Positions 38,006 through 38,262 of a stretch of DNA of 64,000 bases are shown here, piece by piece (within the stretch, counting starts at the first letter, position 1; each line of letters begins with the position of its first letter). The notes beneath the pieces are model-generated. The model was given only the letters and a program-made list of their open reading frames with translations. It did no database searches and had not been told where the DNA came from. A program made the position numbers and the translations under genes. This stretch comes from Escherichia coli (GTDB lineage: Bacteria; Pseudomonadota; Gammaproteobacteria; Enterobacterales; Enterobacteriaceae): assembly GCF_003334815.1 (NCBI RefSeq), contig NZ_QOWO01000002.1; one strand, 5' to 3'.

Positions 38006-38262
38006 TCAGGCGTCCAGATTTTCTTTCACCCATGCAGCAAAATCGGTATAGCCGCCGATATGTTGCTGATCGACAAAAATCTGCGGCACGGTTTCTACGG
38101 GTTTACCTGCCTTTTGTTGTAGATCTTCTTTAGTGATCCCTTCCGCACGAATATCTACATACTGATACTGAAAATCATCGCGTTCATTGCTCAATTTCTC
38201 AGCCAGATCTTTTGCACGCACACAGTAAGGGCACCCGAACGACCAAAAATAACGGTTTGCAT
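38006..38262 (-). pseudogene. grxA: glutaredoxin 1 (grxA) disrupted by a 1-nt deletion at codon 10/11, immediately upstream of the CPYC active-site codons
   Basis: ATG at 38262 reads MQTVIFGRSG then shifts frame and stops after 23 codons; the remaining 75 residues CPYCVRAKDLAEKL...VKENLDA lie in the -1 frame with no start codon upstream of CPYC; the track ORF (71 aa) starts at an internal GTG (Val15). Confidence 0.8.

Follow-up and report, generated by a model that had tools for sequence, protein, structure and literature searches.

The grxA gene (glutaredoxin 1, Grx1) in the 64,000-nt stretch of Escherichia coli DNA analyzed here (hereafter, the window) has lost a single nucleotide at codons 10/11, and we estimate a probability of roughly 90% that this is a genuine heritable deletion in a rare K-12-like E. 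coli group, yielding a null allele or very leaky hypomorph that is tolerated since Grx1 is dispensable. The physical reality of the deletion rests on concordance between assemblies, which favours a true allele: the identical lesion is present in at least 10 assemblies from various projects and assemblers, yet its junction occurs in only one of 5,426 complete E. coli genomes.

Sequence of the grxA locus and its reading frames

The window gene occupies positions 38006-38262 on the minus strand and comprises 257 nt, versus 258 nt in K-12. In a three-way alignment with K-12 MG1655 and strain 52F4, the sole difference from K-12 across 312 columns was one missing T, and a 471-nt query (window 37950-38420) was 99.8% identical to K-12 MG1655, reflecting a single gap and zero substitutions. 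Two further wild-type strains, A14 and BS74R-D, differed from the window in grxA and its flanks by this same missing base only. The lost T is one of the TT spanning the Gly10 codon (GGT) and the codon of Cys11 (TGC), the first active-site cysteine, and corresponds to a plus-strand A at 38233/38234. On the gene strand, the wild-type sequence GGGTTGCCC becomes GGGTGCCC in the window; on the plus strand, GGGCAACCC becomes GGGCACCC; and the wild-type codons TCG GGT TGC CCT TAC TGT become TCG GGT GCC CTT ACT GTG. The deletion site (38233-38234, minus strand) was defined by alignment against K-12, A14, and BS74R-D and by a 41-nt junction search.

Translation of the minus strand from the ATG at 38262 gives MQTVIFGRSG followed by ALTVCVQKIWLRN and a stop, so that the ATG frame now reads GALTVC where the wild type has GCPYC and terminates at codon 24 (TGA at 38191-38193). 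The resulting ORF, MQTVIFGRSGALTVCVQKIWLRN, comprises 23 codons plus TGA (38191-38262, minus strand; the ORF list gives 38191-38277 from an upstream in-frame ATG) and returned zero family matches against NCBIfam. The frame encoding CPYC is open back to a TAA located 21 nt upstream of the ATG and contains no canonical start in between; its first ATG, GTG, or TTG is the GTG at 38221, which lies 3' of the CPYC motif. From this GTG, normally the Val15 codon, a residual 71-aa ORF (38006-38221, minus strand; MRAKDLAEKL...ENLDA in the ORF list) covers Grx1 residues 15-85 and lacks both CPYC, with its two active-site cysteines, and strand beta-1. Direct reading of the sequence upstream of GTG 38221 revealed no evident Shine-Dalgarno-like sequence. 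The stop of the short ORF (AAT TGA) overlaps a TTG in the Grx frame.

These results bear out the first-pass annotation of this DNA, which had been made from the sequence alone. It had described a 23-codon reading from ATG 38262, the remainder of Grx1 (CPYC...ENLDA) displaced into another frame, one plus-strand A missing around 38233-38234, and no ATG, GTG, or TTG 5' of CPYC, leaving only a 71-aa ORF without the dithiol; translation confirmed the reading frames, and the alignments with K-12, A14, and BS74R-D, including the comparison with the reference gene that it had proposed, located the single missing T and showed the rest of the gene to be identical to K-12. It had also singled out grxA as the only gene of unexpected length in the window. 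This is supported indirectly: a few SNPs, an intergenic T7/T8 run, and the deletion account for all differences from the annotated genomes BS74R-D and 52F4, and the corresponding stretches of annotated genomes carry zero pseudogene flags on other non-prophage genes.

Flanking regions and gene order

The region 5' of grxA (38263-38420, minus strand), which includes the ribosome-binding site GAGGAG and the promoter region, is the same as in K-12, with no substitutions. Since this region is unchanged, grxA is probably still transcribed and OxyR-inducible in the window strain. Control of grxA by OxyR is established, and OxyR raises its expression 20-30-fold (PMC10751367). Just past the grxA stop, a GC-rich hairpin read from the sequence, AAGCCCTC-GCGT-TGAGGGCTT, followed by a T-rich stretch (37971-37997, minus strand), is identical to that of K-12 and is likely an intact intrinsic terminator shared with the convergent gene ybjM (37599-37976, plus strand). 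On the other side, the ORF list shows ybjC (38422-38709, plus strand) and nfsA (38693-39415, plus strand) to be intact and divergent from grxA. The order and orientation of ybjC-nfsA, grxA, and ybjM are as in K-12, A14, BS74R-D, and 52F4, which places the window gene at the orthologous position, and K-12 and 52F4 have the same neighbour gene order and protein accessions.

Family assignment and database annotation

Profile searches revealed that the repaired 85-aa product scored 164.3 bits against NCBIfam NF008401 GrxA (cutoff 84) and 148.3 bits against TIGR02183 (cutoff 106.5). The 71-aa remnant scored 127.1 and 117.3 bits, which is also above both GrxA cutoffs, while covering only profile positions 14/15 onward (15-84 in the NCBIfam match). 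The gene has no CPYC motif in frame with a usable start. As judged from its reading frames, the locus is a pseudogene of the GrxA family (NF008401/TIGR02183; PF00462) and not a functional member. On 298 contigs, the remnant has been deposited (NCBI nr, ENA) under a glutaredoxin name, either "glutaredoxin" or "GrxA family glutaredoxin"; because it passes the GrxA HMM cutoffs and carries these names, protein-based presence/absence counts would miscount it as functional.

Rarity of the deletion and comparison with strain 52F4

The 471-nt grxA query matched 5,420 of the 5,426 complete E. coli genomes (5,406 at ≥80% coverage). The sole 100% match among them was NZ_CM147848.1, strain 52F4, isolated from a Swiss calf; the remaining matches listed, K-12 among them, showed one gap relative to the window. 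A more specific query of 41 nt, in which neither flank of the deletion exceeded 21 nt and a 28-nt megablast seed therefore had to cross the junction, likewise matched 52F4 only, with 5,425 of the 5,426 genomes lacking the junction. The 52F4 gene (AC0BNW_RS09135) is labelled "glutaredoxin 1; frameshifted" by RefSeq/PGAP. The same allele has thus already been flagged in public annotation. The first-pass annotation had named, as an observation that would overturn its reading, a reference grxA with this same sequence that still encoded full-length Grx1; the 52F4 allele has the sequence and is marked by PGAP as a frameshifted pseudogene. A literature search for strain 52F4 returned no paper.

We considered whether the window might itself be part of 52F4, and rejected this. 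The window, read as its reverse complement, does not occur within the 52F4 record, it lacks a prophage that 52F4 has, and the two differ by seven SNPs plus the T7/T8 run. Private to the window are the T7 run and three SNPs (2395, 16075, and 22439); four SNPs in the shared 64 kb (30021, 31654, 46361, and 48426) are private to 52F4, which has T8 at 28207. Because the window differs from 52F4 and has the same deletion, two distinct genomes share it.

The prophage difference concerns an empty attachment site in the window at 35486-35499, in the ybjL/rcdA intergenic region. A P2-like prophage occupies this region in 52F4, in A14, and at loci L008 and L012-L015 of the public collection described below, and is absent from the window, BS74R-D, L007, and L009. 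The 52F4 prophage is ~20 kb long and carries a SIR2-family gene. The two alignment blocks between the window and 52F4 overlap by 14 nt at the prophage site, consistent with an att core duplication.

Strain 52F4 also has a clean internal deletion of ~1,021 bp in cydD, flanked by a 3-nt microhomology (AGT), that leaves a 202-aa stub. This lesion lies near NZ_CM147848.1 ~1743565 (L004 31579), 13 kb beyond the window. Because CydDC has been associated with the export of thiols and with assembly of cytochrome bd, 52F4 carries two thiol-redox lesions (grxA and cydD). An exact-protein lookup with the 202-aa CydD stub returned wild-type contig-end fragments only, an artefact of seeking exact matches in a set of fragmentary contigs, and gave no evidence for the cydD truncation as a second thiol-redox lesion common to the carriers.

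Two of the positions private to the window relative to 52F4 were characterized more closely. At 16075, a C-to-T change in gsiA (15031-16902, plus strand) replaces Pro with Ser in the glutathione importer ATPase GsiA. The protein with this replacement was found in 47 blocks of public assemblies, including isolates, a Logan run, and a human gut metagenome, and one of the loci (L017, GCA_965212685.1) was identical to the window across 21.9 kb. Since GsiA-Ser occurs in 47 blocks, it is a genuine lineage marker, and on this sequence evidence it marks a real sub-lineage to which the window belongs. The gsiA gene is 23 kb away from grxA, and no protein specific to the sub-lineage is encoded closer to it. 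Any tie between the GsiA change and loss of the glutathione-dependent Grx1 would be pure speculation. The other position is a T run at 28207-28214 (plus strand) between gstB and dacC, 24-31 nt upstream of the dacC start, which has seven T in the window and eight T in 52F4, BS74R-D, L007, L009, and L016; L017, of all assemblies the closest to the window, ends short of the site. Either the dacC leader has changed in this lineage, or the source assembly of the window has a consensus error at this homopolymer.

Other carriers in public assemblies

An exact lookup placed the 71-aa remnant on its 298 contigs in 408 blocks of the public collection. Ten of the loci returned by this lookup were compared in detail, of which six carried precisely this deletion and four carried other lesions. 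The six comprised two gut-metagenome scaffolds (L007 and L009, the latter compared as the representative of a group with 10 further similar places) and assemblies GCA_917058965.1 (L008), GCA_900479005.1 (L012), GCA_965251705.1 (L013), and GCA_900449785.1 (L014), the last a single contig of 4.66 Mb. As a second bait, we used a private RlmC variant of 52F4 that lies 8 kb from grxA. This variant was found on two public contigs, GCA_049823365.1 (L056) and the Logan assembly of SRR31283624 (L057), both of which carry the deletion and show 100% identity with 52F4 across 21 and 11 kb, respectively; they might derive from the same isolate as 52F4. The identical deletion is thereby documented in at least 10 assemblies, namely the window, 52F4, L007, L008, L009, L012, L013, L014, L056, and L057.

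At the carrier loci, every neighbouring gene is intact. L008, L009, L012, L013, and L014 showed 1-5 differences from the window per 13-20 kb, and the only indel in these five carriers relative to the window was at the T7/T8 run (28207-28214), in L009. Three loci with other grxA indels, L010, L011, and L016, belong to assemblies with many split genes, and such error-ridden assemblies differed from the window at 25 positions, nearly all of them single-base indels, or at about 450 positions per 20 kb; the grxA indels in these three are probably errors. L010 (GCA_053291625.1) and L011 (GCA_045584115.1), with about 450-470 differences from the window per 20 kb, share the same odd lesion, TTCGGGTT to TCCGGTT, at the equivalent of window ~38233-38240. 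This shared lesion probably reflects a context-specific consensus error or a shared low-quality lineage, and the case illustrates that recurrence by itself is no proof that a lesion is real.

Searches of other collections gave negative results. The deletion junction had 0 matches in the metagenome_contigs collection, where the wild-type junction itself occurs on only 36 contigs, too few for an allele well below 1%, and 0 matches among GTDB species representatives. No mention of this allele turned up when the literature was searched for natural grxA frameshifts; one study (PMC12595684) lists grxA only inside a divergent block of one strain.

A different lesion was observed at L015 (AP022120.1, 8911-10001, corresponding to approximately 38232-39105 of the window), where an IS1 end abuts GCCCTTAC at GGTT|GCCC and the 5' half of nfsA, the whole of ybjC, and grxA codons 1-10 are gone. 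Loss of nfsA, which encodes a nitrofuran-activating nitroreductase, is a classic nitrofurantoin-resistance lesion. From its sequence, the AP022120.1 lesion looks like an IS1-mediated deletion of nfsA that took grxA along, and the breakpoint that it has in common with the 1-nt deletion may be a coincidence.

Predicted consequence for glutaredoxin 1

Ribosomes starting at the normal ATG would synthesize a 23-residue peptide and then terminate, and the Cys11-Pro-Tyr-Cys14 dithiol would never be joined to an initiation codon. Because the only usable start no longer shares a frame with CPYC, the allele is predicted to be null for glutaredoxin 1 or, at most, a very leaky hypomorph, with Grx1 activity expected to be absent. 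From K-12 genetics, the expected phenotypes are slower re-reduction of OxyR and dependence of PAPS reductase on thioredoxin 1. Thioredoxin 1, TrxB, and the other glutaredoxins would cover ribonucleotide reductase, PAPS reductase, and OxyR re-reduction, so the allele may be near-neutral in fitness, and it would persist because Grx1 is dispensable. In 52F4, the one carrier inspected for these genes, trxA (WP_001280776.1) and trxB are intact. Published ΔgrxA ΔtrxC strains show no growth defect even under chronic H2O2 stress and slightly outcompete their parent in minimal medium (PMC10751367). Because trxA and trxB are intact in 52F4 and these mutants grow normally, loss of Grx1 should be tolerated.

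Alternative explanations

The first-pass annotation had left two explanations side by side, a genuine loss-of-function allele and an assembly or base-calling error at a short homopolymer, and the comparisons favour the former. That the true genome has an intact grxA from which the consensus lost one T is highly improbable. Single-base indels are the commonest consensus error, the window's private T7 at 28207-28214 (T8 elsewhere) could itself be such an error, and the lesion shared by the low-quality L010 and L011 within the same 10 nt shows that context-specific errors can recur. However, the T was lost from a TT dinucleotide and not from a long homopolymer, and the flanks of the site are clean: window positions 38300-63000 gave a perfect megablast score against many genomes (45,615 bits for 24,701 nt), that is, 0 differences in the 24.7 kb adjacent to grxA, and the carriers are free of indels over 13-20 kb apart from the T7/T8 run. 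In the ~230 kb sampled from 52F4, only two genes are flagged "frameshifted", grxA and, between rep and ppiC, a gene for a PemK/MazF-family toxin. Nor is the deletion confined to one assembly or one error-prone data set, as its at least 10 carriers include short-read-style isolate and metagenome contigs, the 4.66-Mb contig, and a Logan assembly, whereas it is missing from 5,425 of the 5,426 complete genomes with the same sequence context. If the deletion is real, it could nevertheless have arisen independently in several backgrounds at a local hotspot, which we regard as unlikely. In support of recurrence, the background that carries the deletion in L007 shows 328 differences over 20 kb (about 1.6%), with divergent sites as near as ~150 nt past the 3' end of grxA (37856) and ~600 nt upstream of its start (38857); the IS1-mediated deletion in AP022120.1 ends at the same dinucleotide; and no variant specifically linked to the deletion was found. 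One candidate marker, 37445T, was rejected since K-12, with wild-type grxA, has the same base. Against recurrence, all other carriers lie on the same K-12-like haplotype (1-5 differences), and their nested sub-structure, with 40717T in L012 and L013, the RlmC variant in 52F4, L056, and L057, and GsiA-Ser in the sub-lineage of the window, fits one diversifying clade. Around the L007 deletion, a tract of 1 kb (37857-38856) is identical to the window, a pattern consistent with import by recombination, and as a metagenome scaffold L007 may be chimeric or mosaic; the tract could thus represent import, a chimeric scaffold, or an independent recurrence. The sequence context also holds no repeat or quasi-palindrome to template the change, and a simple slippage or deletion at the TT dinucleotide would account for its origin. 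Wild-type strains A14 and BS74R-D match the window as closely as the carriers do, and because the local haplotype is this conserved, common descent of all carriers from one event is not provable.

The remaining alternatives accept the deletion and concern what the gene still produces. That the 71-aa protein is made, by starting at GTG 38221 or by re-initiating on the TTG that overlaps the TGA, and serves in a non-redox role is extremely improbable: its ORF is unbroken and exceeds the cutoffs of the GrxA family, and the AAT TGA/TTG overlap has a geometry that can allow re-initiation, but the product is missing the two active-site cysteines as well as beta-strand 1 of the thioredoxin fold, making folding or catalysis unlikely, and GTG 38221 has no Shine-Dalgarno sequence 5' of it. 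A leaky hypomorph, in which -1 ribosomal slippage within codons 1-10 would restore 85-aa Grx1 at roughly the percent level and OxyR induction could amplify it usefully, is quite unlikely, although the reading frames would permit it. Between the ATG and the motif, the CPYC frame is free of stops, and enumeration of -1 slips showed that slipping at each of codons 1-10 leads to 85 aa that include CPYC, the product being exactly wild-type Grx1 for codons 9 and 10 (at codon 10, on G-GGT). Non-programmed -1 slips suppress single-bp deletions in E. coli at an aggregate 1-10% in two test genes (PMC10861913), and grxA is subject to the 20-30-fold OxyR induction noted above (PMC10751367). The hypothetical leak site is a T5 run in codons 5-6 (ATT TTT; 38245-38249, minus strand), the only site 5' of the deletion with perfect P-site re-pairing after a -1 slip (codon 6 TTT on TTT). 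However, this likeliest slip would yield an 85-aa product that keeps CPYC but changes GRS to WSF at residues 7-9, altering Gly7, Arg8, and Ser9 beside the active site; productive slippage is limited to 10 codons; and there is no canonical X XXY YYZ heptamer. Programmed frameshifting of the prfB/dnaX type was rejected, as codons 1-11 contain no such heptamer and the frameshift is not conserved, its junction occurring in one of 5,426 genomes while the frame is uninterrupted in all the rest. It is very doubtful, beyond this, that the allele is a low-output, OxyR-amplifiable "pseudo-pseudogene" whose lineage may benefit from having less Grx1, for instance because OxyR would stay active longer after peroxide; if true, such a benefit would echo the slight advantage of ΔgrxA ΔtrxC reported under H2O2 stress.

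Comparison with known grxA alleles

The preferred reading, a rare heritable deletion that abolishes or nearly abolishes Grx1, amounts to ordinary strain-level gene decay of a dispensable, redundant redox gene. The allele is a clean example of a naturally segregating null allele in an OxyR regulon gene, for which laboratory knockouts are without obvious phenotype, and it agrees with the idea that many natural conditions do not require Grx1. The carriers are natural grxA mutants that could be used, without engineering, for studying the role of Grx1 or non-programmed frameshift suppression.

Compared with K-12 grxA (glutaredoxin 1, GLRX1_ECOLI, WP_001195240.1), the window gene is the same at 257 of 258 nt, as are the 158-nt upstream region, the terminator, and the neighbouring genes; the repaired translation is identical to K-12 Grx1, and the window gene is one T short at codons 10/11. 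With the annotated 52F4 pseudogene, it shares the identical deletion and 100% identity across window 37950-38420. The IS1-associated disruption in AP022120.1 resembles the allele in that codons 1-10/11 are no longer part of the reading frame and the same 71-aa remnant is left, but the mechanism is different. Relative to the laboratory grxA nulls (ΔgrxA ΔtrxC, PMC10751367), the expected state is the same, with no Grx1 and viability maintained via the thioredoxin system. Those nulls are engineered K-12 deletions, whereas the allele described here is a naturally segregating frameshift with its promoter and other coding sequence untouched, and, unlike them, it would be revertible by a 1-nt insertion and is possibly leaky.
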